Positions 18,979 through 39,600 of a stretch of 64,000 bases of DNA are shown in pieces. Origin of the DNA: Candidatus Cloacimonadota bacterium (GTDB lineage: Bacteria; Muiribacteriota; UBA6191); NCBI GenBank assembly GCA_019454875.1, contig JACFNL010000001.1:7511-71510 (forward strand). Direction: 5' to 3'. The translations under genes were made by a program, and so were the position numbers. Every line of letters starts with the position of its first letter. The first letter of the stretch is position 1. The notes beneath the pieces were generated by a model. That model worked only from the letters and a program-made list of their open reading frames with translations. It was not told the DNA's origin and ran no database searches.

Positions 18979-19971
18979 TCATAACCTCCTGGTACGGGCA
19001 ATCAGAAAAAAATCTGCCAGTACCACAGCTAACATGGATTCCACAATAACCGGGGCACGGTAGGCCACACATGGGTCATGCCGGCCTTTGAGTTTTAAGC
19101 ATACAGGATTTCCCCGATTGTCTACAGTTTTCTGAGGCAAAAATATTGAAGCTGTAGGTTTAAAACTGACCCGTACCACTAAAGGCTGTCCGGTACTTAC
19201 CCCTCCCAGAATTCCACCGGCATGATTGGATAAAAATCCATTATCATCCATTTCATCATTGTGTTGAGAACCTTGCATGCTGACACAGTTACGCCCCGAA
19301 CCAATCTCCACACATTTGGCTGCCGGAATGGACATCATGGCATAAGCAATCCTGGCATCAAGCTTTTCATAAACCGGTTCTCCCAATCCAGTGGGAACTC
19401 CAGTGGCCACAACCTCAACCAGACCTCCTAGAGAGTCTCCCCTCTGTTTTGCCTTTAGAATCGCTTCCTGTATTTCATCTGGATCCTGATACTCTCCTAC
19501 CTGAACCACTCTTGCCGAAATAACAACCGAGGGCGGTAGTATCTGCATGGCTACGGCTCCGGCAATTACTCGGGCCACGGTTTCTCTTGCACTAGCCCGC
19601 CCTCCCCCGTGAGGATCCCATATCCCGTATTTTTTATCCCAGGCATAATCAGCATGTCCTGGACGGTATACACCTAAAAACTCCTGGTAGGCATTGGACT
19701 TTACATCCTCATTTTTAACCAAAAAACTTAAGGGAGCCCCCGTTGTAATTCCATCAACAAGCCCAGATAAAAGCTCAAACTCATCGGACTCTTTACGGGA
19801 ACTTGTGTAAACACTCAGTCCGGGCCTGCGTCTATGAAGCAAATTTTGAATCATTTCAAGGCTCAGATGAATTCCTGCCGGAACCCCATCTAAAACCACC
19901 CCTATGGCTTTCCCATGCGATTCTCCCCAGGAGGAAAAACGATAGAGAATACCAAAGGAATTAAGCCCCAC
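18979..19971 (-). CDS. aroC: Chorismate synthase
   Basis: Full-length match to the AroC family: N-terminus MGLNSFGILYRFSSWGESHGKAIGVVLDGVPAG, plus ...RRRPG..., GGRASARETVARV and GGILGG motifs. Confidence 0.92.
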   Translation of the reverse strand: MGLNSFGILYRFSSWGESHGKAIGVVLDGVPAGIHLSLEMIQNLLHRRRPGLSVYTSSRKESDEFELLSGLVDGITTGAPLSFLVKNEDVKSNAYQEFLGVYRPGHADYAWDKKYGIWDPHGGGRASARETVARVIAGAVAMQILPPSVVISARVVQVGEYQDPDEIQEAILKAKQRGDSLGGLVEVVATGVPTGLGEPVYEKLDARIAYAMMSIPAAKCVEIGSGRNCVSMQGSQHNDEMDDNGFLSNHAGGILGGVSTGQPLVVRVSFKPTASIFLPQKTVDNRGNPVCLKLKGRHDPCVAYRAPVIVESMLAVVLADFFLIARTRRL

Positions 19972-22705
19972 GAAAACCGACCTTCACCGAATCCCCCCAA
20001 CCCAGGATCTCAAATTCACGGCCAGTTCTGCTTAAAAGCTCCCAGGCTCTACGGTAGGAGCTTCGAGCCAATGCATCTTTTTGTGCCAGTTCCCCAATAC
20101 AGGAGGGCAAAATCACATCGGGTTGTATCTCCTCAATAAGCTGATAAAACAAATCCAAATCTCTTGTTTCATCACTGATAGGCAAAGGGACAAACAAAAG
20201 ATGGGTTTTAAAGTCCTTTCCTGCCTGTCGAATCACTTGCAATGCAGAACGATTATCCACCTCGCCAAGCACCAGAAGGTTCAACTTTTCTGTAATACTG
20301 ATACGAAAAGAACGCATATCAATATCAGTCACCATCGGGTAGCGGTAGCGGCCTGGAAGAGCCTCGATCTGAATGGACATATCATAAGGTCCCAAAGAAT
20401 ACAGTTCCCTCTTCTCCCATGCCTCAAATCCAATGACTCCATTCAGACACAGATTTTCCATCCCTGAGGGTACAATCACCAGTTTGTCATCACTAATCAT
20501 GCGGTTCACAATATCCAGATCCAGGTGATCTGGCAGTCTGTGAGTGACAAATGCAATATCTAAAAGCCTGGTGATTTCTGGAAATACATCGGGACGGATT
20601 TTCCAGTACATATCCCATACATGCTGGCAGGAAACTACATCGATGCCTAAATTCAGGGTTGGGGTCTCAAGGATATACCCCCCGTTATACATCTGATGAA
20701 TCAAAAGGCCATCTTCCACATCGTGGACTTTTAACTGATTAAGAACCCTAAGCATCCTTCTCTCAAAAAAATCCTTGAGCTGAGGACTTTTGGAAATTGC
20801 CGGAAAAGCCAGGATTCTATCCATTTCAAAAAGAGCTTCCCTATGTTCTTCCGACTGAAAACGAATGCTTTTAATCTTGTCGAGTGCCGATTCTACCCTC
20901 TCCAGTGATTTGCGAATAGCTGGAGTTCCGTACACTACAAACTGGGAGTTAAACCCTCCAAATCCATCGTAAACCTTGCTGATGTTATCTGGATCATCCA
21001 TCCAGTGCTTTTTATCGACCAAAAACTTATAGGCATGGGTGCCCTGGTCTTCAAATTCCAGTTCCACGGACCAGACGCCCCCCTCCTCTTTTTGCATGGG
21101 GGTTCCGTCCTTCCATTGGTTAAATGACCCCAGAACTTCCACGGTTTGTGCATCTCCTCTATATCTGAGGGTAACTTTATTGTCGCGAATCTGTGGGTAA
21201 CTAAAACCTGGGCTTAATACCCGTTTTTTTGCGGACCGTACAGCTTCTTTAGCCTGAACAACTCCACAGCCCTGGCGTTCCACCGGAACATTTTCCAGTC
21301 TCTTGGCCGTCTGCATAAGAATTTCTTTTACATTTTCAGGGCTTAATGAGGCATTAGCCTCCAGCATCTGCGCAATAATTGAGCAGACAATAGGGGCAGA
21401 AAAAGAGGTCCCATCCACATGCTGGTAGTGTGGGCTAATCAATTTGAATTCCCGCACCTTCTGTTCCATAAAGTTTTTTTTGCCCTGAAAATCCAGACCC
21501 TGCAAGGCCATAAAAAAAGGAATGGGATAATTGTAGTTATCCAGAATTTCTTCAAAATGCTTGGCCGTTCTGGCATGGGCCAGTTCCCATACCAGTTCTG
21601 CCTCACGATAAAACTCAGTGCCGGGTAGTGTCGGGGCTGCCACCCATATACCGGGAGCAATAATTTCCGGCTTCAGGATTCCGTCAGCCGTCACCCCATA
21701 ACTGGAGTGATACATATTATGAGTCCTTGATTCCAGGGAATTTCTGTCATCAAGCCCCCCCACAGTGATCACACTAGGACTGTTTCCCGGTGGGGTTACC
21801 CTCATCCAGCTTTCATTTCCGGCCGCCACTACAACATTGATTCCCGCCTGAATGGCCTCCTCAGCAGCATGATTGATGGATGATTCCCTAAATGAAGCTG
21901 CTTCATCCCCCGCACCTAGTGAAATGTTTAGAATCCGCAGATTGTAGCGTTTCTGTTTACGAATAGCCCACTCAATACCTGAGATAATAGCCTCAGTTGT
22001 AAAACCTTCCTGTCCCATCACTTTTAGCAGGGCTACATTGGCTTCGGAGGCAATTCCCTTATAAAGTCCATTGCTCAAATATCCATTCCCTACAGCACTG
22101 ACACAGGTTTGCATCCCATGCCAGCTATGAATATCCGGTTTTTCAAAATTGGATTTTGCCGCATTCGGAGAGCCCAGATCCTTATATGCAACCACACGGC
22201 GATAGGGTTTCATAATGTCGGGATGAGGATAAAATCCCCCATCCAGAAAGCCGATGCAGATTCCCTTACCCGTGTAGGCTGGATCGGCATCAAGTCGCAA
22301 AGGTGTTGGTAGAATTGTATATTCTTCTTTTCTACAGATAACTCTGGTACTTTTTAACTCCCTGACAAACTCTGCTTCCAGATTCTTTTTCAACAGTTCT
22401 TCCAGACCTGCCTGATTCATTTTATGAATCCCGGATCCAAACAGAAGTGAACCTGCCTGACTCATTTGCTGCCGCAGACGAATCAAAGTTTCATGGGGTA
22501 ACTGTCCCATCCATTCATCCTGAATTTTGGCCCGGATAACTTCCGTGGAAATTTTTGCCAAATATCCAATATCAAGTCCGGTTGTATAATAAAGCTCAAT
22601 CAGCAATCGCTCTTCACGGGAAACTTGTTCCGAATCAATTTCTTTCCAGGTACGGGCCTTGAGGTTCTTATCGAGCTGCAAACTATAAAAAAAACTCTCT
22701 ATCAC
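19961..22705 (-). CDS. Multi-domain protein: an N-terminal region, a subtilase (S8) domain, an AMPK-β-type carbohydrate-binding module (CBM48-like), and an MBL-fold domain with a variant metal motif. No signal peptide.
   Basis: The ORF frame runs to 22741 (TTG). The likely start is the GTG at 22705, preceded by GGAGGT and overlapping the stop of the upstream small ORF (GTGA). S8 triad context: GICIGFLDGGFYPHPD (Asp), SWHGMQTCVS (His), NISLGAG (oxyanion Asn), GTSFSAPIV (Ser). The CBM region VTLRYRGDAQTVEVLGSFNQWKDGTPM...HAYKFLVDKKHWMDDPDN matches the AMPK β-subunit glycogen-binding domain (GSFNNW...YKFFVDGQW..DP). The C-terminal MBL fold (GGYILETPTLNLGIDVVS...DIAFVTHRLPDHLD) has HRLPDH in place of HxHxDH. 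Confidence 0.8.
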   Translation of the reverse strand: MIESFFYSLQLDKNLKARTWKEIDSEQVSREERLLIELYYTTGLDIGYLAKISTEVIRAKIQDEWMGQLPHETLIRLRQQMSQAGSLLFGSGIHKMNQAGLEELLKKNLEAEFVRELKSTRVICRKEEYTILPTPLRLDADPAYTGKGICIGFLDGGFYPHPDIMKPYRRVVAYKDLGSPNAAKSNFEKPDIHSWHGMQTCVSAVGNGYLSNGLYKGIASEANVALLKVMGQEGFTTEAIISGIEWAIRKQKRYNLRILNISLGAGDEAASFRESSINHAAEEAIQAGINVVVAAGNESWMRVTPPGNSPSVITVGGLDDRNSLESRTHNMYHSSYGVTADGILKPEIIAPGIWVAAPTLPGTEFYREAELVWELAHARTAKHFEEILDNYNYPIPFFMALQGLDFQGKKNFMEQKVREFKLISPHYQHVDGTSFSAPIVCSIIAQMLEANASLSPENVKEILMQTAKRLENVPVERQGCGVVQAKEAVRSAKKRVLSPGFSYPQIRDNKVTLRYRGDAQTVEVLGSFNQWKDGTPMQKEEGGVWSVELEFEDQGTHAYKFLVDKKHWMDDPDNISKVYDGFGGFNSQFVVYGTPAIRKSLERVESALDKIKSIRFQSEEHREALFEMDRILAFPAISKSPQLKDFFERRMLRVLNQLKVHDVEDGLLIHQMYNGGYILETPTLNLGIDVVSCQHVWDMYWKIRPDVFPEITRLLDIAFVTHRLPDHLDLDIVNRMISDDKLVIVPSGMENLCLNGVIGFEAWEKRELYSLGPYDMSIQIEALPGRYRYPMVTDIDMRSFRISITEKLNLLVLGEVDNRSALQVIRQAGKDFKTHLLFVPLPISDETRDLDLFYQLIEEIQPDVILPSCIGELAQKDALARSSYRRAWELLSRTGREFEILGWGDSVKVGFRGA

Positions 22706-22878
22706 TGGCTGACCTCCAGGACAAATCGACGGTAAAACCAAAGAACCTTCTGGGGAGATTCTACCCAGGCCGGATACCGTTCCCTAATCTTGTTAAGAAG
22801 ATGTTCCTCAGTCTGGAAATGATAGTCAAAAAGTTCCTTGTCGACATCGCGATTACAGATTGGGCAAAGTTGTTTCAT
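22702..22878 (-). CDS. Small C2H2-like zinc-finger protein (58 aa)
   Basis: The likely start is the ATG at 22878, 2 nt after the stop of the 22881..23300 ORF. The ORF-track version (85 aa, start 22959) overlaps that ORF. Sequence: MKQLCPICNRDVDKELFDYHFQTEEHLLNK..., a CxxC-x11-H-x5-H arrangement. Its TGA stop overlaps the GTG start of the subtilase gene. Confidence 0.45.
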   Translation of the reverse strand: MKQLCPICNRDVDKELFDYHFQTEEHLLNKIRERYPAWVESPQKVLWFYRRFVLEVSQ

Positions 22879-23323: not shown

Positions 23324-24649
23324 TCAGAAGAAACTTAGGAAATCCATTTCACGAGACTCAAGAATCGTGGTAATAAAAAGCTCTCGAGGTGGATTTTTAA
23401 AGAGAGCTACAGGATCTTTGGCCTTAACACGGCTGTTATCCTTAACTAAAAACTGAAAGTCTCCCTCAAAAGTAATCTGGGTGGCATGACAGGTAAACGA
23501 AAGGCTTCGTTCCCCTATAGTCACCTGGGAATCACAGGGTGCCAAAACCCTTGGCCTTGACAGAGAAACAAGCTGTATAAAGGGGCGGTCTGGATGAAAA
23601 TTCTGCTTTACAACCCCTGGTTCTTCCAATGGCCACTTAAGGGTTTTGCCCTGCTTCATCTTGTTTTGAAACCAGGAAAAAAATGCCATATCCACAGCCT
23701 CGATATCCATGACATCAAGCTTCTGTAACTTAAGGCCATCCCTTTCCAGATTTTTTATCAAAAAACCCTTTTCCCATTCCAGTTTTTTAAGATTAAGCTC
23801 CAGCTCATTTCGTCCAACAGAAGCCTGTACTGCCTGCTCCAACTCTACAATTCTTTCAACATTGCGTCTGGCGGGAAGGGTGAGTAACAAAGAGTGATCT
23901 CGTACTGCCTGCACAAAAAACTCTGTTTTATCGGCCTCGGTCATTACAACCTTACTCTGCTTCTCAATCCTTTGGGAAAACTCGCTGGCATATTGTTCTA
24001 GCTGCACCTGAAACATGGCAGTCTGTGGGGAGTTTGTGCCATACATCTGCATGGAGCTAAGGGCCAGTGCAAACGAATCCCTTGCTCTTTCATCCACTAA
24101 AGAGGCCTTCCAGGAGTTCAAAAACGCCTTCTTTTCCTTATCTTCCTTGAGCTGGGGCAGCACCCTCAAGGCCGCATTTGTTACCGGGGTTTTTTCAGGC
24201 AACAAGGGAGAAGAGGACAGCAAGTCAGGGTTTTCATCCTTTTGATGAATCACAGCTTTCACAGAAGCACGGGCTACTTTGGCATCCACAAAACGACTGG
24301 CATATTCTCTTTTTAAAGACTCCAGTCTCTTTTGTTCTTCACGATATTTGGTCTGCATTCCCGAGGGAAGTAAAACAGCCTGATCCAGGGCCTGAAGCTG
24401 TCTATCCTTTACATCAATTTGCTGAACAACGGCCGAATCCACAGAATCCGTGATCCGATCATAAAAAACCTGTTCTTCAGTGCTACTTAAAACAATTGTA
24501 TTTCGCGTGGAAGCAAACTGGGCCTGGGCACGGGTTTCCTGCCTAAGTCCATCCAGAAAATCAATGCTTTGAGTCGAGTCCTCCGCCCTGATTTGACTGG
24601 CAAAAAAAACAAGACCCAAAAAACCAATTGGTCGAAACCAGCTCAACAT
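23324..24649 (-). CDS. Secreted coiled-coil protein with a C-terminal β-rich domain (about 441 aa)
   Basis: The start is set at the ATG at 24649, 1 nt after the stop of the upstream gene (TAAtATG); the ORF track extends to 24685. Signal peptide MLSWFRPIGFLGLVFFASQIRA. A long predicted coiled coil follows. The C-terminal ~100 aa are β-rich with 2 Cys. Confidence 0.65.
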   Translation of the reverse strand: MLSWFRPIGFLGLVFFASQIRAEDSTQSIDFLDGLRQETRAQAQFASTRNTIVLSSTEEQVFYDRITDSVDSAVVQQIDVKDRQLQALDQAVLLPSGMQTKYREEQKRLESLKREYASRFVDAKVARASVKAVIHQKDENPDLLSSSPLLPEKTPVTNAALRVLPQLKEDKEKKAFLNSWKASLVDERARDSFALALSSMQMYGTNSPQTAMFQVQLEQYASEFSQRIEKQSKVVMTEADKTEFFVQAVRDHSLLLTLPARRNVERIVELEQAVQASVGRNELELNLKKLEWEKGFLIKNLERDGLKLQKLDVMDIEAVDMAFFSWFQNKMKQGKTLKWPLEEPGVVKQNFHPDRPFIQLVSLSRPRVLAPCDSQVTIGERSLSFTCHATQITFEGDFQFLVKDNSRVKAKDPVALFKNPPRELFITTILESREMDFLSFF

Positions 24650-24650
24650 A

Positions 24651-26483
24651 TTAACGATCAGGATTCTCAGAAATCCGGAAAACATCTCGGGTTATCGATC
24701 CCGATGAGTTTCTGTATACAATGAGTTGATCCATAAAATTACCGGGTCCATCAGCCATACCATTGCGGCATTGTGTCGAACATTCCATATAATCTTCGTT
24801 GTAGTCATGAATATTACTTGGGGGAAAACTGCCAGTAGGCCTTTCCTCAAGCATATGTTTGGCCCTGGCCACTGCATCCATTGAGCCTTCACCCTCAGGA
24901 CGAACATCAGAACCCTGAGCTGGTGGCAGAACAGCACCTGATACTCTGGGTTCTACACCAGACGCGCCACTGTCACCATCGGCATCTGCATCACCGTCAA
25001 TCATGCGCCCCATCCCCCCCATAGGGCTTATGCCAGAATCACCCGAAGATGCCTGAGCATAATTCTGCACCTTTGGATTTGGGGTCCCCGTGCTTGCTGC
25101 TTCCCTGGCCAGGTTGGTGGCCTTGATCGGGGTTCCACCTGCATACAGAGTGGCTTGACGAAAAATGTCAGGATTGTTACGGGCCTCAATCAAGGACAAT
25201 TCACGAATGGCCGCAAAAGCACCGTGAGCTTCGGCTAGTTCTGCTAGCCCCATGTCTTCCCCACTAGTCAGTTTACGGCCTTCGCCTTGACCCACGACAG
25301 CAAAAAGCTTATCACGATCCAAGGAGTTGCTACCCTCTCCTGACAATTCGGAATCCGTGGTAGTGGTGCCATTTTTTGCCACATAAGCGGCATAATAAGC
25401 ATCTTTACATTCCGCACTGTCCGATGGTGGTTTTACCCCAAGTGTACCAGCTTCCTTACAAAACTTGAGTCTGGACTCATCATCTTTAATCTGCTCATGC
25501 AAGGTGGACAGTTTAGTTTCCTCAATCAGTCTTGGGATAATATCACCTGCAAAATTCTGATTCAATTTATCCACAAAGCTCTTGCGCCCACTTTCCTCGT
25601 CCAGATTATGTTTGCTGGATATACTTCCCACCGCATTCAAAAATGAGTCTGAGGGCACATAAATTGAGCCCTTGACACCATCCTTGAGTTTGTCTCCATC
25701 GGTCAGATTTTTCTGGGTGAACATATCAGCTTCCAGACGACATTCCGCCGCTGACTTTCCCTGTCCTGCGCACTGATTAAAGGCTGCAAGAATGGATTGG
25801 CTTAAATCAATATTATTTAAACCATCTTCGCCCAGACCAAAAAACTCCTGAGAAAAAAACTTGGTTGCATCCCCCTTGTATGGTTCGCCTTGGACATCAT
25901 CCACAGAAACCATGCGAGCACACTGACCCTCAAAAAACTCTGCCTGTTCTGCAGCACAGTCAATCTGTCGCTTAACAGCCGAATTCCGGTTCAAAAAATT
26001 TTCCTGAGCCGCTCTAGCCTCTGGTTTATCAATTTTACCCAGACCATACAAAATTGCGGCTGTGGAGGCAGATCGACTGATTCCAAAATTAGTGAAAAAT
26101 ACTTCCATGGTGGCACACTCTGCATCACCTGCACAGTTTGAACCTGATTTTGCCTTGGAGTTACCCTTTAGTCCAGCAATGGTGGAATCATTAACACCAT
26201 AACCAAACATCTGGGCACAATTTTTATCTGCCTGGGAGGCACAGGAACTGTCCTGGCATCGATCCACGCGGCAAGTTTCCATCATGCCCGCTCCGTAGTT
26301 CCCCACCTCATCACGCATGGACTCATCCAAGGCTCTGACATCCCTGCAAAAAATCTCCATGCTACGATCCAGTCCTGGTTTGGCACAATCCTGCTCCCAG
26401 CGATTTTGCGTTTCGGTTGTATTCGCCCAACACAAATTGGCAAGTCCCGCAATCAGTAAAACCGGAATTAATTTTTGCACCAT
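24651..26483 (-). CDS. Secreted Cys-rich protein (about 610 aa)
   Basis: The start is set at the ATG at 26483, with GAGGGAAG 8 nt upstream; the ORF track has a TTG at 26513. Signal peptide MVQKLIPVLLIAGLANLCWA. The N-terminal ~170 aa hold about 14 Cys. The central region is Gly/Asp-rich low complexity, and the C-terminus carries a further CxxxC. Confidence 0.65.
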   Translation of the reverse strand: MVQKLIPVLLIAGLANLCWANTTETQNRWEQDCAKPGLDRSMEIFCRDVRALDESMRDEVGNYGAGMMETCRVDRCQDSSCASQADKNCAQMFGYGVNDSTIAGLKGNSKAKSGSNCAGDAECATMEVFFTNFGISRSASTAAILYGLGKIDKPEARAAQENFLNRNSAVKRQIDCAAEQAEFFEGQCARMVSVDDVQGEPYKGDATKFFSQEFFGLGEDGLNNIDLSQSILAAFNQCAGQGKSAAECRLEADMFTQKNLTDGDKLKDGVKGSIYVPSDSFLNAVGSISSKHNLDEESGRKSFVDKLNQNFAGDIIPRLIEETKLSTLHEQIKDDESRLKFCKEAGTLGVKPPSDSAECKDAYYAAYVAKNGTTTTDSELSGEGSNSLDRDKLFAVVGQGEGRKLTSGEDMGLAELAEAHGAFAAIRELSLIEARNNPDIFRQATLYAGGTPIKATNLAREAASTGTPNPKVQNYAQASSGDSGISPMGGMGRMIDGDADADGDSGASGVEPRVSGAVLPPAQGSDVRPEGEGSMDAVARAKHMLEERPTGSFPPSNIHDYNEDYMECSTQCRNGMADGPGNFMDQLIVYRNSSGSITRDVFRISENPDR

Positions 26484-26520
26484 ACACTTCCCTCGCAACA
26501 CTACCTGATCCAATTATAAG

Positions 26521-26552
26521 AAAAAATAGCCCAAGCGCAATGCGTTGGGCTA
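26521..26552 (-). terminator. Rho-independent terminator (minus strand) between the Ser/Thr-rich protein gene and the Cys-rich protein gene
   Basis: A perfect 8-bp stem, TAGCCCAA/TTGGGCTA (26527-26534 / 26545-26552), with a 10-nt loop. On the minus-strand transcript it is followed by UUUUUU (26521-26526). It overlaps a TATAAT -10 element (revcomp of 26513-26518) for the downstream gene. Confidence 0.5.
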
Positions 26553-26570
26553 TTTAGTTAAATCCATTGC

Positions 26571-28484
26571 TTATGGACGATCCAAATTAGTTCTTACCAG
26601 GTCTTCATCAAAGTTTGCCATATTCTCGTAAACAAACTTCAAACAGTTGTCATAATCGTTGCCAAAATTCTCATCACAATACTTCAGTGTCTCTTCCGAA
26701 ATACCCTGTCTGAGCAGATCTGTCCGATTTTTGACAGCTTTATCGTCTCCGGGTACAACATTCAGTCCAGCACCCATCACAACTGCCCCATCACTTAAAG
26801 TATGGACTACCCGTTTATTTCCATCTTCATCCAGAACTGTCTCAGCCGAGACCGGAACTGCATTAAGACTCTGCCTGGCAACCAATACATCTCTCTCAAG
26901 CTCAGTAACTCTGAAACCACCAGCAGGCGCAACAGGCCGCTCATCCGGAGTGGTGGACTGGGGCCTTACACCACTATCAGGGGTGGTGCTAGCAGGAACA
27001 ATAACCACCTCGTTGTCAGTATCACTGTCTGACATTCTATCCACAGTGGTGGTTCCCGATGCCTCTGCTGAAAGCGTACGGTCAAATTCCTCAAACTCAG
27101 TGGTAGTGGGTTGAGAAGCCAGGCTTTGCTGCTCTCTATCATTGATGACATCATCTTCTGTAGTTCTTTGAGAAGCTGGACCACTGTAAAAACTAGACCC
27201 AGTCAAAGCCATATCATCAGGATTGGGATCTACCACCGGTTCATCGCCCCACACAATATCGGTAGGCAGGTAATCCGGTGTGGTTTCGACAGAACCTGCT
27301 GCCGCAACTGGCTCAGGGGAAGAACTTGTTACAGATGACTGTGCGGCAGATATAGCTTCTTCGGGGTCAACATCACCAGGAGTAACTACATTCTGGCCAG
27401 TCAAATCAGGAATAGGGCTTATTGCACCTGATTCAGGAGCTGTGCTGCCTTCTGATGAATTTCTTGGAGCTGTGACAATAATATCTTCCCCAATAACTTC
27501 AACAGAGGCCACATCTTCAGTCGCATCACCAGCGTCCGATGTTGTTGTACTAGCCGCTGTAGATGGTTGTGGACTTCTGGCGGCAGCCAGACCGGAATCA
27601 TTAGGACCACAAAAGGTATTGGGAGCCATTGGCCCAATAAAATCCGTACCACAGGCCGAATCAATCGGTCTGCCAGGTATTGGTAAATTGTCATTATAAA
27701 TTCGGATCTGTTCTACGGTAGCATCAGCAGGCAAACCACGGAAATTTTTGGCTGCATCAATAATGCTTTGATGTTCTGAGGGTTCGCTGGTACCCGCTAA
27801 AAGCTGAGTTAAGTCTGGAGTTGCTGCCGATGAGGTGGTTTGTGATGCCGGGGCTGGTGTTCCAGGCAATCCTGTTGTGGAAGGATCCTGAAAGTCAGCC
27901 AGCAGGCAGACCGCTCCGGGGCCTTCTCCCTTTTCAACTGAGGTAGCACGACCACTACCATCATAAGTAATTCTCATGCCCTCTTCATACTCAAGGGGTT
28001 TGCGATTACCCGCATAGCCTGTCATGACGATCTGCCCATCCCTGGTGTAAATATAACCTTCAGGGGATACGGTAAGGCCACTGTCTGGAGTGGGAACTAC
28101 AGGGGAGGAAGAGCTGGTTCGGGAAGCCGGCTGGCTCTGGGAGCCTGCAACAGGTTCAGACACCGGATCTACTCTTGGGGTTGTGCCAGCACTAGACACA
28201 GCCACAGCGGAATCCCGGGTGACCACGGCTGCTGGTGTGACAGCAACTGTTGGGACGGTGTTCACAGTGGCAGTAGGCTCTGGGGGACAGGGAACCCCTA
28301 CAACATCCCGAGTCCAGCAGGCTGCGGTTGCACCCACATTATATATTGCCGAACCCGCCCGGGAATACCAGGGTCTATCATCGGTCGTTTCGGTTGCAGC
28401 CATCAACATAGGTGTAACCGCAGTAAAACAGGTTACCATCAGCGATGAGCGAACAAAATTTCTGAAATTGTAATACTGCACCAT
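26571..28484 (-). CDS. Secreted Ser/Thr/Pro/Asp-rich acidic protein (637 aa)
   Basis: Hydrophobic N-terminus (…SSLMVTCFTAVTPMLMAA), with GGGAGG 8 nt upstream of the ATG. Low-complexity T/S/P/A/V/D/E-rich sequence dominates most of the length. There is a short YD-like segment (GYIYTRDGQIVMTGYAGN...MRITYDGSGRATSV). The C-terminal ~120 aa are more ordered, with 2 Cys. Confidence 0.6.
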   Translation of the reverse strand: MVQYYNFRNFVRSSLMVTCFTAVTPMLMAATETTDDRPWYSRAGSAIYNVGATAACWTRDVVGVPCPPEPTATVNTVPTVAVTPAAVVTRDSAVAVSSAGTTPRVDPVSEPVAGSQSQPASRTSSSSPVVPTPDSGLTVSPEGYIYTRDGQIVMTGYAGNRKPLEYEEGMRITYDGSGRATSVEKGEGPGAVCLLADFQDPSTTGLPGTPAPASQTTSSAATPDLTQLLAGTSEPSEHQSIIDAAKNFRGLPADATVEQIRIYNDNLPIPGRPIDSACGTDFIGPMAPNTFCGPNDSGLAAARSPQPSTAASTTTSDAGDATEDVASVEVIGEDIIVTAPRNSSEGSTAPESGAISPIPDLTGQNVVTPGDVDPEEAISAAQSSVTSSSPEPVAAAGSVETTPDYLPTDIVWGDEPVVDPNPDDMALTGSSFYSGPASQRTTEDDVINDREQQSLASQPTTTEFEEFDRTLSAEASGTTTVDRMSDSDTDNEVVIVPASTTPDSGVRPQSTTPDERPVAPAGGFRVTELERDVLVARQSLNAVPVSAETVLDEDGNKRVVHTLSDGAVVMGAGLNVVPGDDKAVKNRTDLLRQGISEETLKYCDENFGNDYDNCLKFVYENMANFDEDLVRTNLDRP

Positions 28485-28557: not shown

Positions 28558-29589
28558 CTAAACCTTGTAGCGCAAAGGCACATCGGATGCTTCCAGTTTT
28601 CCTGCCGTGACAAGAGACTCAAAAGCTCTGGAATATGGAATACAATCTTTTTTGCTACCGGCCTTGTGGAATGCCAGGACAGAGGCCAGATTCCCATCGC
28701 GCAAGTGTTTACGGGGCTGGGGGTGCATGGTTAGTGCTTCTTTTACAAGATGTGGCTCACCGATACTACTGGTAAAAAAAGACTGATGATAAATACCGTT
28801 CAGACAGGACACAAGCAATCCTCTGAGTTCCCGGCTCTGGGATAACATCTGGGTTATTTTATGAATGGTGTTTTCTATATCCAGAGACAAAAAGGTTCCA
28901 AAAACCAGGATACCCCTGCTGGCAAGCCGAACAGCAGCTTCCAGTCTCTGAAGGCTATTGATATCCCCAAGGGCAACCACATTTACATCCGCTTTCATCA
29001 GGGACTGTACCGCTAAAGAAAAATCCACAATATCACGGTCATAAGTGCGTCGCGATAGAAGACTTCTTTCAAACAGAGGGAACTCGCCTTCCAGTACATC
29101 GTCAAGCTGCACCATACTCCAGGAATGATTGGAGCCAAGATGCTGCAAAATGGCATTCTGGGTAGTACTGCGCCCTGAGTCAGGTGTTCCACAGATAAGA
29201 TACAAACCAGAACGCTTATTGAGCCAGGAATCGATCAGGGGTTCCAAAAACCCCAATTCTTTTAATTCAAACACCTTGGTTTCAATCAGCTTTCCAGAAA
29301 CTCCAAGAGTACCCCTTTGTCTGTACACACTAAGTCTTGCCGAATAACGCGGGCTGAAGGGATATCCAACAATAACATCCTGGCCTTCCAGAACCTTGCG
29401 CTTAGAGGACTCATCCACAAAAGAATCTACAATCTGATACACTTCATTGGACAAAAGCCTCTCGCAATCAAATCTCTTCACACCCTTTCTATCCTGCATT
29501 ACCGGGGTTGTTCCCGAAATAATGTGAAGCCAGCGACAGTTCGCATCAATAGCATCCCGCAAAAACTCGTCAATATGCCGTTTATCCAT
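28558..29589 (-). CDS. PilT-family (type IV pilus retraction ATPase-like) protein with degenerate catalytic motifs
   Basis: Aligns along its full length with PilT (N-domain, ...FSL.V..L.RFRV..Y...G core). Walker A is GTPDSGRSTT, with Lys replaced by Arg. The Asp box is DVNVVALGDINS, i.e. GD where GE is canonical. The His-box is ILVFGTFLSLD, with both His lost. Its start shares 1 nt with the stop of the upstream PilT-like gene (TAATG). Confidence 0.8.
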   Translation of the reverse strand: MDKRHIDEFLRDAIDANCRWLHIISGTTPVMQDRKGVKRFDCERLLSNEVYQIVDSFVDESSKRKVLEGQDVIVGYPFSPRYSARLSVYRQRGTLGVSGKLIETKVFELKELGFLEPLIDSWLNKRSGLYLICGTPDSGRSTTQNAILQHLGSNHSWSMVQLDDVLEGEFPLFERSLLSRRTYDRDIVDFSLAVQSLMKADVNVVALGDINSLQRLEAAVRLASRGILVFGTFLSLDIENTIHKITQMLSQSRELRGLLVSCLNGIYHQSFFTSSIGEPHLVKEALTMHPQPRKHLRDGNLASVLAFHKAGSKKDCIPYSRAFESLVTAGKLEASDVPLRYKV

Positions 29590-30932
29590 TAAAAATCATC
29601 CCCAACTTTACGCTTCAACTGCGGCCGGTAGCGAGATTCAAAATTGTCCCTTTCCTCAATCTCCTCCAAAAGTGCATCAAAATCCAAAATCTGGTTCTGC
29701 ACCATCTCAAAAGCCCGTTTGTGCAGGGAACGACAATTGGGTAAGGTCTCCAGCTGAGGAAGAATACCCTGCCACCTGCATTCGCGAATCAGGTTTCTAA
29801 GATTGGCATCCGGGATCATGTATTCCCGCACCGGAACCACGGCTTTGTCTAAATCATGATACAGATGCTGGCAAAGGCACAAACGCAGGCTATGGGAAAA
29901 TCGATCCAGAAGACTTTGATTCCCCTCTCTAGGAATCAGACTTGTAAGCGTTTCCAAAGCAGCTGTAACTGATACCCCAGGTACTGTCAAAATCACATTC
30001 ACTGAACTCTCGGCTGCAGTAATCAGAAATTCAAGAAGCTCCAAACTGTCTACAGAGGAAACAAAAAGCCAGTTCACTCCCCCCTTTAAGACATAGCGGA
30101 CTCCCGAAACTATACTTTGCATGTCCGATCCGACTTCTCTTTGGGTAATACTTGCCACTGCATCACGAAACAGAAATTCAATTGGATCTTCAAAGGTTTG
30201 AATTCTTAAAGGTTTTGTCTGGTTCAGATGGTTCAGAATGGCCGCCACAAGTGTACTTTTACCTGCAACCGCTGGACCACTGATTAAATAAAGTCCTCCC
30301 TGTCCCTCTTCCAAAGACTGAAGAATCGTAGATTCAAGGTTTAAGGACGATAGTTCAGGTATATCAAATGGAATCTGCTTTAAACTGATAGCCGGCCGAC
30401 CTGCCTCATGATAGGCACTTACCCGAAATCTGGATAATCCGGGAACAGAGAGAGAAAAATCCACAACCTTATACTGAGATAGAATTGCCGAATAGGCCGG
30501 AGAAATATATTCCCCGATGATAGCCTGTAAATCTCCCACACTAAATATAGGAACATCAGCTAATTCATGCAAAGAGCCACCAACCCTTACATGGGGCTTC
30601 AAATCCGGCTTTAGGTGAAGCACTTCTGCCTTCATTTCCTTGACAGTTTTAAGGATTCTTAAAAACTGCTCCCCTACTTCTTCGCCTTGAAGCTGCACCC
30701 TGCGAGGGCCTGTGCGTTTTTCCACAAGCTCCAGTTTTTGCAGGGCCTGTTTATATAGCTGGGGTTGAACCTGTTTGGTCTTCAACTTTTCCAAAACCCG
30801 CTTTAAAAAAACGATATCTTCATTAGGAAGGGAGGCAATAGCTTCGACAGGCTGCCGGATCAGTACTTCCAAGGGAGCATTAAATACTCCCTGACAATTT
30901 TTGAGTGCTTCCCTGAAGTCTTTCATGAACAT
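29589..30932 (-). CDS. PilT-family protein with a ~100-aa N-terminal extension and degenerate Walker B/His-box
   Basis: Walker A GPAVAGKST is intact and the PilT C-terminal signature LRNLIRE is present. The Asp box reads NWLFVSSVDSLE, with SS in place of GE. The His-box region ILTVPGVSV has no His. The motifs DFSLSVPGLSRFRVSAYHEAG and TFEDPIEF are conserved. Confidence 0.8.
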   Translation of the reverse strand: MFMKDFREALKNCQGVFNAPLEVLIRQPVEAIASLPNEDIVFLKRVLEKLKTKQVQPQLYKQALQKLELVEKRTGPRRVQLQGEEVGEQFLRILKTVKEMKAEVLHLKPDLKPHVRVGGSLHELADVPIFSVGDLQAIIGEYISPAYSAILSQYKVVDFSLSVPGLSRFRVSAYHEAGRPAISLKQIPFDIPELSSLNLESTILQSLEEGQGGLYLISGPAVAGKSTLVAAILNHLNQTKPLRIQTFEDPIEFLFRDAVASITQREVGSDMQSIVSGVRYVLKGGVNWLFVSSVDSLELLEFLITAAESSVNVILTVPGVSVTAALETLTSLIPREGNQSLLDRFSHSLRLCLCQHLYHDLDKAVVPVREYMIPDANLRNLIRECRWQGILPQLETLPNCRSLHKRAFEMVQNQILDFDALLEEIEERDNFESRYRPQLKRKVGDDF

Positions 30933-30978
30933 GTCTGAATCATATACAAATCAGGGGTTGTTTGGCTATCATGCTTCC

Positions 30979-31665
30979 ATGATTTTTCGTTTGATTTTAT
31001 TGATCTTTGCCCTCAATCCCTGCTACGGGGAGATGGTCGGCGGATTTTTTGAGCCAAAATCCAGTCTGTGGGCAGTTCTTAAAACCAGCCCGGACACAAA
31101 AACAATTCACCTTATCAACCAGTGGGTGGCCTCTGGTATCAGCGTTCGTATCATTTCCGACACAAGTCGCATAAATACCGAGGAACAACTCTGGGATCTT
31201 TTGGATGAATCCGTACAAATCCGCTTTTTGGATAGCCCAGATGTTATATCCCATGATATTTTTGTTGTGGATGAAGTTTTGGCTATCTGGGCTCCAACTC
31301 TGTTTTATAATCAAAGCTACCGTCTTTTTTATCCTCGGTTTGAAAAGGACCCGGAATCTGTTTCTGTTTTACAGGCCCAGGTATTGGATGTCTGGAAATC
31401 CCTTTCTTCAACCGCTTCCCAAATTATCTTAAAGGGCTTAAAACATAGAAGCGAGGATACAACCATAGTTACACCTTCTGTTTCAGTTCCCATTTCAGTA
31501 AGTACTAGCAGTGTTGACAGTCCAGGTTTTGTGGCTTCCAAAAATTCCAAGGTGTATCATCCAGCAAATAGTGGTGAAGCCCAGAGGATTCTTGAAGAAA
31601 ACAAAGTTTTTTTTGCCACTGAAGCCGATGCTTTGGCATCGGGACGAAGAAGGGCTAGAAAATAA
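30979..31665 (+). CDS. Secreted PLD-like-fold protein lacking the HKD motif, with a short Ada-like C-terminal tail
   Basis: Start set at the ATG at 30979, giving the signal peptide MIFRLILLIFALNPCYG; the ORF-track start at 30901 overlaps the divergent PilT-like gene. The central region resembles a PLD-like repeat (ISHDIFVVDEVLAIWAP) but has no H-x-K-x4-D. The C-terminus is KVFFATEADALASGRRRARK. Confidence 0.45.
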   Translation: MIFRLILLIFALNPCYGEMVGGFFEPKSSLWAVLKTSPDTKTIHLINQWVASGISVRIISDTSRINTEEQLWDLLDESVQIRFLDSPDVISHDIFVVDEVLAIWAPTLFYNQSYRLFYPRFEKDPESVSVLQAQVLDVWKSLSSTASQIILKGLKHRSEDTTIVTPSVSVPISVSTSSVDSPGFVASKNSKVYHPANSGEAQRILEENKVFFATEADALASGRRRARK

Positions 31666-33471: not shown

Positions 33472-34671
33472 TTGTCGCCAGTGGGTAAGATTGGTTACAA
33501 TGGGGTTGTGTCTCGACAAATCATTTTTCGCATCCACAATGAACAGCTCTCCTTTGAAAAACAACTTCTAGTGAGTGATGGTCAAACTATCCGTGTTGGA
33601 CGGGTAGAAGAAAACGAGATCTCCGTAAATGACCCCAAAATCTCAAGGCATCATGCCCAGATAGAGTTTCACAAGGATTCAGTGCTAGTACGGGATCTGA
33701 ATTCCAGGCACGGAACATTTTTAAATGGGGAGCGCATGAATCACTCCTTTCATCTAAGAAGTGGCGATGCCATAAAAATTGGAGACACCGAGATTCGTTA
33801 CCGCTTTGAGGATCAGACGAACAAATCTGTTCAGGAATCCAAATCAAATCTGCCTCAATCCCATTACCAGTGGTACCTTCAAAAAGATTTGAGTTCCTAC
33901 CTGAAAAATTCTCCCCAGGAACCATCAGAAGAACTCGACACCTTCTACCGTAAAATGCTTCTGTTTCCTTTTTTCCTGCTCTTTGTGTTTTTTGCCCTCT
34001 TTCCTTCAGCCACCACCTTTTTGGTCTCACTCACATACAGCGGAATCGCCCTGTATTTCTCAAAAAATCTGCTAACCGGCCCTGGAATCAGAAACCACGA
34101 ATCCTTTCAGCTTCCCATCACCAGACGCATCAATAAATTGCAGGCTCAGATTCAGAAAAAAGTAAATTCACTGCCCTCCTTTGACAGAAACCTGCTTGGG
34201 AAAATGCAGAAGGAAATGCTTCAGTTTGTGGAAGAAAAACTTCCCCAGATGGAAAAAGACATTTTTTCACTGAACCGTTCCCTGGTTTCTGGGACTCTGC
34301 AAAGGCTGGAACAAAGAAAAAACATGCTGGAATCCGAGTTAAAAAATGCCGGCGATGAATCGATCTCCCTTCAGATTCAAAACAATCTGTCCCGCCTCAA
34401 CCGTCAAATCAAAATGCAGAAGAATATCAAAAACATCCTGATGCATCTTATTCTTAAACTCGAAGACTATCAGATCCAGCTGGAAATCCTGGAAAGCACC
34501 CTGATAGCCCAGGAATTTCGTGACAACTACACTGACTTTTCTAACCGTTTTCTTGATCTTCAGGAAGACATTGACGAAGTCTACCGCGAATACAATGCCT
34601 TAAAAGTTGAGGAACCATTCCTGCTTACCGAGGAAAAACCTGCCGGGGAAATCGCGGCTCCCGAAACCTGA
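33472..34671 (+). CDS. FHA-domain protein with a TM segment and a C-terminal coiled coil
   Basis: FHA core: TIRVGRVEENEISVNDPKISRHHAQIEFHKDSVLVRDLNSRHGTFLNGERM. A hydrophobic segment follows (LLFPFFLLFVFFALFPSATTFLVSLTYSGIALYF), then a coiled coil. There is no in-frame ATG before the FHA domain, so the start is a non-ATG codon (TTG/GTG) and its exact position is uncertain. Confidence 0.75.
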   Translation: MSPVGKIGYNGVVSRQIIFRIHNEQLSFEKQLLVSDGQTIRVGRVEENEISVNDPKISRHHAQIEFHKDSVLVRDLNSRHGTFLNGERMNHSFHLRSGDAIKIGDTEIRYRFEDQTNKSVQESKSNLPQSHYQWYLQKDLSSYLKNSPQEPSEELDTFYRKMLLFPFFLLFVFFALFPSATTFLVSLTYSGIALYFSKNLLTGPGIRNHESFQLPITRRINKLQAQIQKKVNSLPSFDRNLLGKMQKEMLQFVEEKLPQMEKDIFSLNRSLVSGTLQRLEQRKNMLESELKNAGDESISLQIQNNLSRLNRQIKMQKNIKNILMHLILKLEDYQIQLEILESTLIAQEFRDNYTDFSNRFLDLQEDIDEVYREYNALKVEEPFLLTEEKPAGEIAAPET

Positions 34672-37409: not shown

Positions 37410-37870
37410 CATCGGTTTATTTAAACAGTGCAAAAGAAACTAAAGATCTTGGACAGAAAATCGGAGCCATTCTGCCTAAAGGCAGCCTGATTCTTTTATC
37501 TGGCGCAATGGGTGCGGGTAAATCCACCCTATGTCAGGGTATTGCCCAGGGACTTGGTCATACAATGCAAATTTCCTCCCCTTCTTTTACTCTTTTGAAC
37601 ACCTATGAACAAAAGGAGGCCAGAGCAGTCCTGAATCATCTTGACTTTTATAACATAGAAAACTTAGAACATTTGGAGAGAATTGGAATATACGATGTGC
37701 TTGAGGCCGAAGATACTGTGTGTCTGATAGAATGGTGGGAAAAATTCCCCGAGGTAACTCAGGGACTACCGGCCTTAAGACTGTTACTCAGTTTATGTGG
37801 TGAGGGTCGTCGTCTGGAATGGGTTGATGAGTTAAACCTGGGTCAGGATATTTTTGCGGAGAGGATTTGA
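37406..37870 (+). CDS. tsaE: tRNA threonylcarbamoyladenosine biosynthesis protein TsaE
   Basis: P-loop LSGAMGAGKSTL and the TsaE/YjeE family length. The GTG start overlaps the polA TGA stop (GTGA). Confidence 0.85.
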   Translation: MTSVYLNSAKETKDLGQKIGAILPKGSLILLSGAMGAGKSTLCQGIAQGLGHTMQISSPSFTLLNTYEQKEARAVLNHLDFYNIENLEHLERIGIYDVLEAEDTVCLIEWWEKFPEVTQGLPALRLLLSLCGEGRRLEWVDELNLGQDIFAERI

Positions 37871-37872
37871 GC

Positions 37873-39600
37873 ATGTCAGATAAACCTAAATTGGGTCAGA
37901 TTCTGGTGAAATCCGGGGCGATCAGCCTCAAGGATTTGGAATCATTTCTGAAAAATCAGGAAGAACTCAAGGACGAAAGAGGCTACCAGACCAAACTGGG
38001 GGATTTGTTATTAGAAAACAAGCTTGTCACTGAATCCACCCTTGCTATGGCGTTTGCCGAGCAGCAGGGAGTCAAATTCACCGATCTTAGTCGCTACAGC
38101 CCCGATCTGGGGGTTCTGGAAAAAATTCCGTTTTCAATATTGAGCCGCTTCAAGTTTGTACCCCTTTATCTGGATTCTCAGAAGTTAGTGGTTGCCTTGC
38201 ATGATCCTGTGGATACCTTTTTGCTGGATCTTCTCTACAAGGCATTAGGTGTAACCATAGAGCTTCAATCAGCCACCAGATCCCATGTGGAAAATGCCCA
38301 CCGTTCCTGTGTGGACTCCGTTAAAAAGGCCGGTAAGGAAAACCACAATTTTGATATCAATTTTGAGGAGTACCGTCTGATTCTGGAGCAGGAAAAAGAT
38401 GTAAAGCAGGAGATTGAAAAACCGGAAGTAAGCCTGAAAAACAGTCTTAACGAATACAGTCTGGAAATCATTCTCAAGCAGTTTATCAAGGATCAAAGAC
38501 ACTTCGGACTAAAGTTTTCCCCCAATCATCACGAGGTTGTGATAAGTGGCCGCATTCGTGGAGGCTGGGAGTATTATGGCTGTCTGAGCCTGGAAAAATT
38601 TCAGGCCTTCTGGATTAAGGTGAAAAACCTCTGTCAGGTATCAGAGGAAGATACGGCCTACATTTCTCAGGCCTGGTTTGAGTTGCCAATTCGTGAGGGA
38701 GAATCCCATACCTTTCAAGTCACATTCCTCCCTGGACGGAACGGACTGGAACTGTTGCTGGAACCCTATTCTCTGGATAGGCGAAGTTTGTCACTGGAGC
38801 GGGTCGGCCTTTTAGAAACCGATGTAATGCGAATTGCGAATTTTGGATCGGATCCACGAGGAGTTCTGGTTCTTGGTGGCCCACAGTCGGGAAAATCTAC
38901 CACACTTCTGGCATTGATGAATCAAAACCGCCATGCCTCACACCATCAGCTTCTGTTTGAAGAAAGAACCTCATTTACGGTTGCCAATCGTTCGCAAATT
39001 CATCTGGATGAACATCAGTCCCAGTTGGATGGAATCGGTTTTGCCTCACAAAGCAGCATTGAGGTATTTGGAATTGACAGCCTAAGTCCGGAAAGATTTC
39101 ATAGTGTGTTAAGACAGACCAGTGGCAAGATTCTGTACGCCACCCAGAATGCCCATCCCATACTTCCATTTTTGTCACAGATGGAAAAACAGGGAGTTTC
39201 CCTTGGACATCTGTTTTCGCAATTCCGGCTAATTATTCATCAGAAACTGGTGCCTTCAATTTGTACCTGGTGCTCAAGCCTGACTCCCTACCCTGCCGAA
39301 CATATTGCCAAAATGGGACTGAAACCGGAAACATTAAAAAAGCCCCTGTTTTATTTGCCAGCTGGCTGTGATTATTGTGAAAACAAGGGTTATTCTGACT
39401 TTACCCTGATCTATGAAATTCTGCATGCAACCCCGCCAACAGTCAAACTTTTGACGGAAAATCCAATTTCCAATGAACTGGCTATGCATCTGATGAAGGC
39501 TGGAGGACTCAGTTCTCCAAACAATGTGGCACGGGATAAACTCTACAGGGGGCAGATTACTCTGGATACCTACGCAGCAATCCTGCAAAGGAAGCTCTAG
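37873..39600 (+). CDS. GspE/PilB/MshE-family protein with an N-terminal MshE-N (T2SSE_N) c-di-GMP-binding domain and a degenerate ATPase core
   Basis: ATG at 37873, preceded by GGAGAGGA; the ORF-track TTG is at 37867. There are two tandem MshEN 24-residue motifs: KLGQILVKSGAISLKDLESFLKNQ and KLGDLLLENKLVTESTLAMAFAEQQ. Walker A GGPQSGKSTT is intact. The Asp box (FGIDSLSPE) lacks the catalytic Glu, and the His-box (ATQNAHP) is not canonical. The C-terminal tetracysteine CxxC...CxxC is present. Confidence 0.8.
   Translation: MSDKPKLGQILVKSGAISLKDLESFLKNQEELKDERGYQTKLGDLLLENKLVTESTLAMAFAEQQGVKFTDLSRYSPDLGVLEKIPFSILSRFKFVPLYLDSQKLVVALHDPVDTFLLDLLYKALGVTIELQSATRSHVENAHRSCVDSVKKAGKENHNFDINFEEYRLILEQEKDVKQEIEKPEVSLKNSLNEYSLEIILKQFIKDQRHFGLKFSPNHHEVVISGRIRGGWEYYGCLSLEKFQAFWIKVKNLCQVSEEDTAYISQAWFELPIREGESHTFQVTFLPGRNGLELLLEPYSLDRRSLSLERVGLLETDVMRIANFGSDPRGVLVLGGPQSGKSTTLLALMNQNRHASHHQLLFEERTSFTVANRSQIHLDEHQSQLDGIGFASQSSIEVFGIDSLSPERFHSVLRQTSGKILYATQNAHPILPFLSQMEKQGVSLGHLFSQFRLIIHQKLVPSICTWCSSLTPYPAEHIAKMGLKPETLKKPLFYLPAGCDYCENKGYSDFTLIYEILHATPPTVKLLTENPISNELAMHLMKAGGLSSPNNVARDKLYRGQITLDTYAAILQRKL

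Follow-up and report, generated by a model that had tools for sequence, protein, structure and literature searches.

Hexamers of the PilT family are known from textbooks as motors that generate force, and a pair of genes in an uncultured bacterium raises the question of what such proteins do once their canonical catalytic residues have changed. The pair lies in a 64,000-nucleotide stretch of the Candidatus Cloacimonadota assembly GCA_019454875.1 (contig JACFNL010000001.1, positions 7,511 to 71,510), which as a whole is called the window here. It consists of two adjacent PilT-like genes, A and B, both of which deviate from the canonical motifs of the family. A preliminary description of the window had presented their products as predicted pseudo-ATPases and had placed the pair at the head of a coupled gene string that encodes three large secreted proteins. 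Genomic context was recovered for nine diverged lineages, with 31-48% identity between most of them. As judged from these sequences, A and B are selected, non-canonical proteins that are most likely hydrolysis-deficient and work together. They have no conserved link to the secreted proteins.

A tandem pair of PilT paralogs

Gene A (29589-30932, minus strand) encodes a protein of 447 aa with the PilT fold and a helical N-terminal extension of ~90 aa. Gene B (28558-29589, minus strand) follows directly and encodes a PilT-like protein of 343 aa, the more degenerate partner of A. The stop codon of A and the start codon of B overlap in TAATG (29585-29592, minus strand). The junction reads GAT GAT TTT TAATG GAT AAA, with a 1-nt overlap at base 29589 as described before, and is interpreted as a site of translational coupling.

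By their sequence, A and B are full-length PilT-family paralogs. Both match the Pfam family T2SSE (PF00437) with 38.9 bits (A) and 38.1 bits (B), above the gathering score of 24.9. The best NCBIfam family for both is TIGR01420 (PilT/PilU), at 177.2 and 128.5 bits, respectively, which is far below the 319.1 bits that mark membership. Both can be aligned over their entire PilT-like length with PilT from Aquifex (2ewv; E 3.5e-43 for A and 6.7e-29 for B), which agrees with the full-length alignment claimed earlier. PilU and DotB structures score much lower than PilT (A, 151 bits to PilT vs 85 to PilU; B, 104 vs 52). An AlphaFold2 model of A, built from a 5-sequence alignment, has a predicted local distance difference test score (pLDDT) of 78.8, and its top Foldseek match is PilT4 from Geobacter (6ojy; E 5.7e-29, template modeling score normalized to the target 0.69). 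The PilT fold is defined by an N-terminal PAS-like N2D and a C-terminal RecA-like ATPase domain. Both are present in the model of A and in the sequence of B, for which the fold is read from the alignment with 2ewv (B residues 6-313) and from sequence alone. A and B share 25% identity, and their mutual distance is about that of each from ordinary PilTs.

The divergence is a property of these genes. Assembly or sequencing errors are ruled out as its source, because the substitutions recur in P0001 and P0002, which come from independent assemblies and have 98% and 89% identity. Scores are normal for housekeeping genes of the window (SecY 371 bits, PolA 487, AroC 397), so the divergence is specific to the PilT-like genes and not genome-wide.

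Catalytic motifs in the window copies

The motifs were assigned from PilT structure alignments and a hidden Markov model (HMM) alignment; all motif coordinates refer to the minus strand. In A, the Walker A motif GPAVAGKST (30252-30278) keeps the lysine of the canonical GPTGSGKST. The Asp box is intact (FEDPIEF, 30174-30194; canonical EDPIE), and the QRE motif is kept as QREVGSD (canonical QREVG). In the Walker B motif NWLFVSSVDS (30045-30074), SS takes the place of GE in the canonical DVIFVGEMRD, and the glutamate is lost. The His-box region ESSVNVILTVPGV (29973-30011; canonical ETGHLVFGTLHTN) has lost both histidines. The PilT signature AIRNLIRE is retained as NLRNLIRE (29781-29804).

B has changed at more positions. 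Its Walker A lysine is substituted with an arginine (GTPDSGRSTT, 29161-29190), its Asp box is degenerate (LDDVLEG), and SRRTYDRD stands at the QRE position. GE has become GD in the Walker B motif (NVVALGDINS, 28954-28983), and both histidines are missing from the His-box region SRGILVFGTFLSL (28882-28920). QPRKHLRD, found at the position of AIRNLIRE, follows a family-conserved variant, xRKH[LI]R[ED].

Checked against these alignments, the motif calls of the preliminary description hold: the LRNLIRE signature in one copy, the retained Walker A motif and missing His-box histidines of A, and the three changes named for B (lysine to arginine, GD for GE, loss of both histidines). Two statements need correction. 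The SS of A had been placed in a joint Walker B/Asp box; it lies in Walker B, and the Asp box is untouched. The FSxxVxGLxRFRV core had been attributed to both proteins; it occurs in A (GLSRFRV), and B has YSARLSVY there.

Conservation and motif drift in nine lineages

All nine lineages that carry the pair are uncultured metagenome-assembled genomes (MAGs) labeled UBP17 or "Cloacimonetes". Full-length relatives were rare in word-indexed searches, which returned no more than five for A and three for B. An exhaustive HMM search with a B profile through 1.84 billion representatives yielded nine B-family clusters (50% identity), after which the scores drop to those of ordinary PilTs. A first metagenome scan for relatives found nothing, and the sole lineage recovered by a second one was the already known L003.

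In nine of nine lineages, a B-type gene (337-349 aa) comes directly after an A-type gene (442-455 aa). The pair is intact even in L016, although every other neighbor differs there. Stop and start overlap by 1-8 nt in six lineages, and the other three have a gap of 9-57 nt. On one contig of the P0004 lineage (L008, 8100-8420), B starts normally after A and then passes into unrelated context (OPT, PGK); this break is probably an assembly join and not a real loss.

The motif positions behave differently in the two families. The Walker A lysine of A is present in all nine orthologs, as is an Asp box of the form E-[D/S/N]-P-I-E. At Walker B, the glycine is absent from all nine A proteins and the glutamate is found in four, the others having S, S, S, K, and I. 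The first His-box histidine is kept in four of nine A orthologs and the second in none. In the B family, the Walker A position is arginine in 8/9 and lysine in 1/9 (a further cluster, P0103, also has lysine). The Asp box is degenerate. The Walker B glutamate is present in five of nine (otherwise D, D, D, S), and neither histidine occurs in any of the nine orthologs. Neither partner combines the Walker A lysine with the Walker B glutamate in four of the nine lineages, including the window. Of the 268 PilT-like domains in all matches, in contrast, 203 have K/E/H/H at these four positions, the state of ordinary relatives.

In spite of this drift, purifying selection on both genes is strong. The ratio of nonsynonymous to synonymous substitution rates (dN/dS), computed between the window and L001, amounts to 0.032 (A) and 0.016 (B), values that are approximate owing to a saturated dS. 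The dN itself (A, 0.063; B, 0.044) is as low as in the neighboring S8 protease and FHA genes. Each family is monophyletic, the two branch in broadly the same order, and their pairwise identities correlate with r = 0.95, a co-divergence that fits vertical co-inheritance as a unit. The free variation at catalytic positions and the strong selection in nine orthologous pairs strengthen the earlier proposal that A and B are pseudo-ATPases.

Each family also conserves features of its own. B orthologs share the signatures SGTxPV, YxQRGTL, DSGR[ST], SLxSRRxY, LASRG, YHQ, RKH[LI]R[ED], and DCxxY. Residues 1-90 of A (30663-30932, minus strand) form a family-specific helical N-terminal domain that is conserved in nine of nine orthologs. 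It carries a strongly conserved basic motif, FLKRVLEKLKTKxV...LELVEKR, and is modeled as helical with a pLDDT of about 85. The domain is without a match in Pfam, and a separate model of it retrieved no similar fold from the PDB (best E 0.8). A docking module is a plausible role for it.

A third secretion-ATPase homolog

A PilB/GspE-like protein of 577 aa is encoded 7 kb from the pair in a polA-tsaE operon (37867-39600, plus strand). It contains MshEN and T2SSE, the latter at only 53 bits, and matches PilB (5zfr) with an E of 6.8e-29. The window copy keeps the Walker A lysine and has lost the Asp box, the Walker B glutamate, and the His box. The same pattern extends over about 20 orthologous clusters: Asp box and His box have disappeared, and a Walker B glutamate remains in just 5/19. 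The orthologs do retain the zinc-binding CxxC...CxxC (19/19), and a tandem MshEN motif of the cyclic di-GMP (c-di-GMP) type, (K/R)LGxxL...Q occurring twice, is almost invariant across the clusters. All three secretion-ATPase homologs visible in the lineage (A, B, and the PilB-like protein) are degenerate and lack canonical catalytic residues. The operon context of the PilB-like gene is conserved and contains no pilus genes. Candidate pilins beside the gene in L017 were rejected, as they are small open reading frames (ORFs) without a prepilin motif. The PilB-like protein may be a third member of the A-B functional set.

Proposed function of the pair

The reading favored here, with a probability of roughly 55%, is that A and B are translated together and form a complex with a regulatory or scaffolding role, where nucleotide is bound by A and B contributes no catalysis. 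The pair would be ancient, co-inherited, and PilT-derived, with the PilT fold kept and the dependence on canonical secretion-ATPase hydrolysis chemistry lost. In A, all that nucleotide binding needs appears to be retained (P-loop lysine, Asp box, QRE, and the arginines of RFR). The protein is probably a switch subunit that binds ATP and hydrolyzes it slowly or not at all, and its N-terminal helical domain would be the likely site of docking. B, with its arginine P-loop, degenerate Asp box, and missing His box, would be the structural partner. Together they most likely assemble into a hetero-oligomeric ring or two stacked rings. Such a ring may report its nucleotide state or occupy a platform, and it would not perform force-generating retraction. 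The degenerate, MshEN-bearing PilB-like protein may join this set. Directly observed are the fold, the motif states, the conserved pairing, the purifying selection, and the absence of a conserved linkage to the secreted genes, whereas the loss of hydrolysis, retained nucleotide binding, contact between A and B, and a regulatory role are inferred. The combination of fixed nucleotide-binding elements in A with drifting catalytic positions in both proteins and a conserved pairing is what is expected of a nucleotide-binding, hydrolysis-independent complex. The same pattern is not expected of a working motor or of a dying gene.

A more far-reaching version of this reading is speculative: the whole motor set of a type IV pilus (T4P) might have been converted in this candidate phylum to a pilus-free, hydrolysis-independent sensing or scaffolding module, with MshEN and zinc binding contributed by the PilB-like protein and nucleotide binding by A-B.

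Several points weigh against the favored reading. An arginine in Walker A or an aspartate in Walker B does not always abolish activity. The A proteins of L003, L007, and L012 keep the lysine, the Asp box, the Walker B glutamate, and the first histidine; they may hydrolyze ATP slowly, and the loss of activity may be lineage-specific and not ancestral. The dN/dS values come from the sole close pair, in which dS is saturated (about 2-2.6). Lastly, characterized PilT and PilU form separate homohexamers (PMC6821130), which weighs against the predicted contact between A and B.

Degenerate PilTs in other bacteria and a possible adaptor role

The main rival to a self-contained A-B complex is that A and/or B are non-catalytic adaptors, which tune or gate a canonical PilT/PilB motor of a T4P or a type II secretion system (T2SS) encoded elsewhere, much as PilT serves PilU as an adaptor. 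This is a tentative alternative, and part of its appeal comes from other degenerate PilT-like proteins. Among the top 150 matches, about 15 clusters (P0118, P0129, and about 13 more) form a monophyletic clade of their own. They have a Walker A of the form GxxxSGR[ST], in which arginine replaces lysine, a lost His box, and a variable Walker B residue. The gene is single in this clade and not part of a pair. Two members, from other uncultured bacteria, lie in complete T4P operons (L019, 8001-9074; L020, 5295-6383). These operons comprise pilM-N-O, a canonical pilB, the degenerate pilT in the pilT slot, pilC, and a prepilin. Motif-deficient PilTs can thus be functional parts of a pilus machine, and A and B remain plausible as adaptors. 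This role is further favored by the finding that PilT mutants in Walker A or Walker B still support PilU-dependent retraction (PMC6821130), and by the common separation of pilT-pilU-type tandems from the remaining pil genes (PMC13584747). The immediate surroundings of the pair speak against it. The sole other secretion-ATPase gene in the 64 kb, the PilB-like one, is itself degenerate, and neither the window nor any of about 20 related loci contains pilus machinery (pilC, pilM-Q including the secretin, prepilins, or peptidase).

Degenerate PilT domains also occur in fused form. The PilT-PilT proteins P0149, P0144/P0252, and P0221 are about 660-710 aa long, with one or both halves degenerate. 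P0149, from a Verrucomicrobiota MAG, has an arginine P-loop in its N-terminal half and, in its C-terminal half, SS at Walker B and no His box. Double-PilT fusions with canonical motifs exist as well, at about 720-1020 aa. The separate clade and the degenerate fusions score better to the canonical PilT HMM than to the HMMs of A or B, which points to their independent origin. The fusions were for this reason rejected as Rosetta-stone evidence for a contact between A and B, being independent inventions and not orthologs. The preliminary description was overstated in that degenerate PilT paralogs are not confined to this pair, given this clade and the fused versions in other uncultured lineages. 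A literature search of incomplete coverage found nothing on naturally degenerate PilT pairs or PilB pseudo-ATPases, which is absence of evidence only, and nothing useful on the biology of UBP17.

An unlikely alternative: retained catalysis with non-canonical residues

It is unlikely, on the balance of the motif data, that A and B are still working retraction ATPases. Under this alternative, the P-loop arginine would replace lysine, an aspartate or another carboxylate would replace the Walker B glutamate, and Asp-box glutamates would serve as the base. The invariance of Walker A, Asp box, and QRE in A is compatible with such an enzyme. So are the conservative change to GD in the window copy of B and the Walker B glutamates that persist in 4/9 A and 5/9 B orthologs. 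The putative catalytic positions vary, however, between E, S, K, and I in A and between E, D, and S in B, which is unexpected if they carry out chemistry, and the window copy of A offers no carboxylate at the Walker B position at all. The second histidine, which is reported as essential in PilT by a study cited in PMC5065972, is absent from 18 of 18 A and B proteins. Both families also evolve fast for PilT proteins, as the 31-48% identity between lineages illustrates.

The genomic neighborhood

Downstream of B and in the same orientation lie three ORFs with signal peptides (637, 620, and 453 aa; 23324-28484, minus strand), which stand outside the conserved module. The 637-aa protein is rich in Ser/Thr/Pro. 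None of the three has a Pfam or NCBIfam match or homology to pilins or T2SS substrates. The preliminary description had linked them to the pair, and an operon headed by A and B for the export or handling of these proteins would explain the arrangement. The five genes are co-oriented in the window and in its closest relative (L001/L002, 89% identical). The gaps are short (73 and 57 nt), the ORF for the 637-aa protein is preceded by a ribosome-binding site (GGGAGG), and the intervals contain no terminator-like site. The link fails nonetheless. The ORFs follow the pair only in these two places, and the downstream genes differ in the other seven of nine lineages. Compared with the closest relative, the secreted proteins are 63-80% identical vs 90-95% for A and B, and they evolve several-fold faster (dN 0.15-0.29 vs 0.04-0.06). 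Because of this restricted distribution and fast evolution, the proposed link is unsupported. The ordinary N-terminal signal peptides, moreover, imply export by Sec. The operon explanation is largely refuted by synteny and is very improbable.

That A and B are functionless, decaying relics of a lost pilus system, as the eroded catalytic motifs of all three secretion-ATPase homologs in the window might suggest, is hardly credible in view of intact ORFs in nine deeply diverged lineages, a dN/dS of about 0.02-0.03, conserved family-specific motifs and N-terminal domain, and conserved translational coupling.

Other genes accompany the pair more faithfully. A divergent ORF of about 230-254 aa (30901-31665, plus strand; start codon uncertain) has a signal peptide, a weak phospholipase D (PLD)-like domain, and a C terminus resembling Ada-Zn-binding. 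It adjoins the pair in 8/9 lineages (orthologs in L001, L003, L006, L007, L012, L014, and L015). PLDc_2 is matched at 28.8 bits (cut-off 27) by the L014 ortholog and more weakly by four others; a weak Pfam match to Ada_Zn_binding is seen in the L006 ortholog only. The window copy has no Pfam match, and its HKD-like motif looks degenerate (HDIFVVD). A family-9 glycosyltransferase likewise accompanies the pair in eight of nine lineages. The presence of both genes may be simply inherited synteny. Two further conserved genes lie nearby: one for a subtilase of 926 aa that carries a glycogen-binding module of the CBM48/AMPK type (19961-22741, minus strand), and one for an FHA/YscD-cytoplasmic-like membrane protein (33472-34671, plus strand), the latter syntenic with the pair in most lineages.

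Scans of the locus for other kinds of elements gave little. A search for defense systems with PADLOC yielded only a P-loop-level match of A to mad8 (16.5 bits) and none for B or the neighbors. An Rfam scan of the window found three tRNAs only and nothing near the pair, and promoter and terminator scans did not rise above shuffled expectation.

Significance of the pair

A deeply conserved, selected, and coupled pair that lacks the catalytic residues suggests a second, non-motor use of the PilT scaffold. Nucleotide-state sensing, platform occupancy, and partner recruitment are candidates for such a use. The degenerate PilB-like protein of the same lineage and the independent degenerate PilT clade in pilus operons elsewhere point in the same direction. 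If the more far-reaching version of the proposal is true, A and B with the PilB-like protein would be a pseudo-enzyme signaling complex descended from a molecular motor. As natural "ATPase-dead" variants, they lend themselves to asking what PilT does besides ATP hydrolysis, and how retraction or its regulation proceeds without a canonical motor.

Comparison with known systems

The PilT-PilU tandem of Pseudomonas, Vibrio, Neisseria, and Myxococcus resembles A-B in several respects (PMC6821130, PMC6762196, PMC13584747). In both cases, adjacent paralogs are often found away from pil genes, and the first gene carries the AIRNLIRE-type motif while the second lacks a canonical version. One subunit of PilT-PilU can work without ATPase activity of its own (PMC6821130, PMC6762196, PMC13584747). 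The differences lie in the chemistry and in the architecture. PilT-PilU has all four motifs and hydrolyzes ATP, whereas neither A nor B has a complete set. A has an additional N-terminal domain, both proteins fall far below the TIGR01420 cut-off, and both are closer to PilT than to PilU.

Organisms with several PilT paralogs offer a second comparison. Geobacter has four PilTs (PilT1-4) and Myxococcus five PilT-family proteins, among them the conserved tandem MXAN_6705/MXAN_6706 of M. xanthus, whose first member has a longer N terminus, as A does (PMC13584747). In contrast to A and B, none of these proteins has lost Walker A, Walker B, Asp box, or His box (PMC13584747, PMC5065972).

Signaling that does not depend on hydrolysis has precedent among the assembly ATPases. 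In M. xanthus PilB and the MshEN receptors MshE/PilF, the nucleotide or c-di-GMP state carries the information, and a hydrolysis-deficient PilB still signals to the exopolysaccharide (EPS) pathway (PMC5544727). The PilB-like protein of the window shares the tandem MshEN motif with c-di-GMP receptors of the MshE/PilF type. M. xanthus PilB and MshE/PilF are also functional motors, whereas signaling by A and B is a proposal. A further parallel is FlaH of the archaellum, which has an incomplete Walker B motif, binds ATP but barely hydrolyzes it, and regulates FlaI, a motor of the T2SSE family. FlaH differs from A and B in its fold, which is that of KaiC/RecA and not of PilT, and in being the partner of an active motor.

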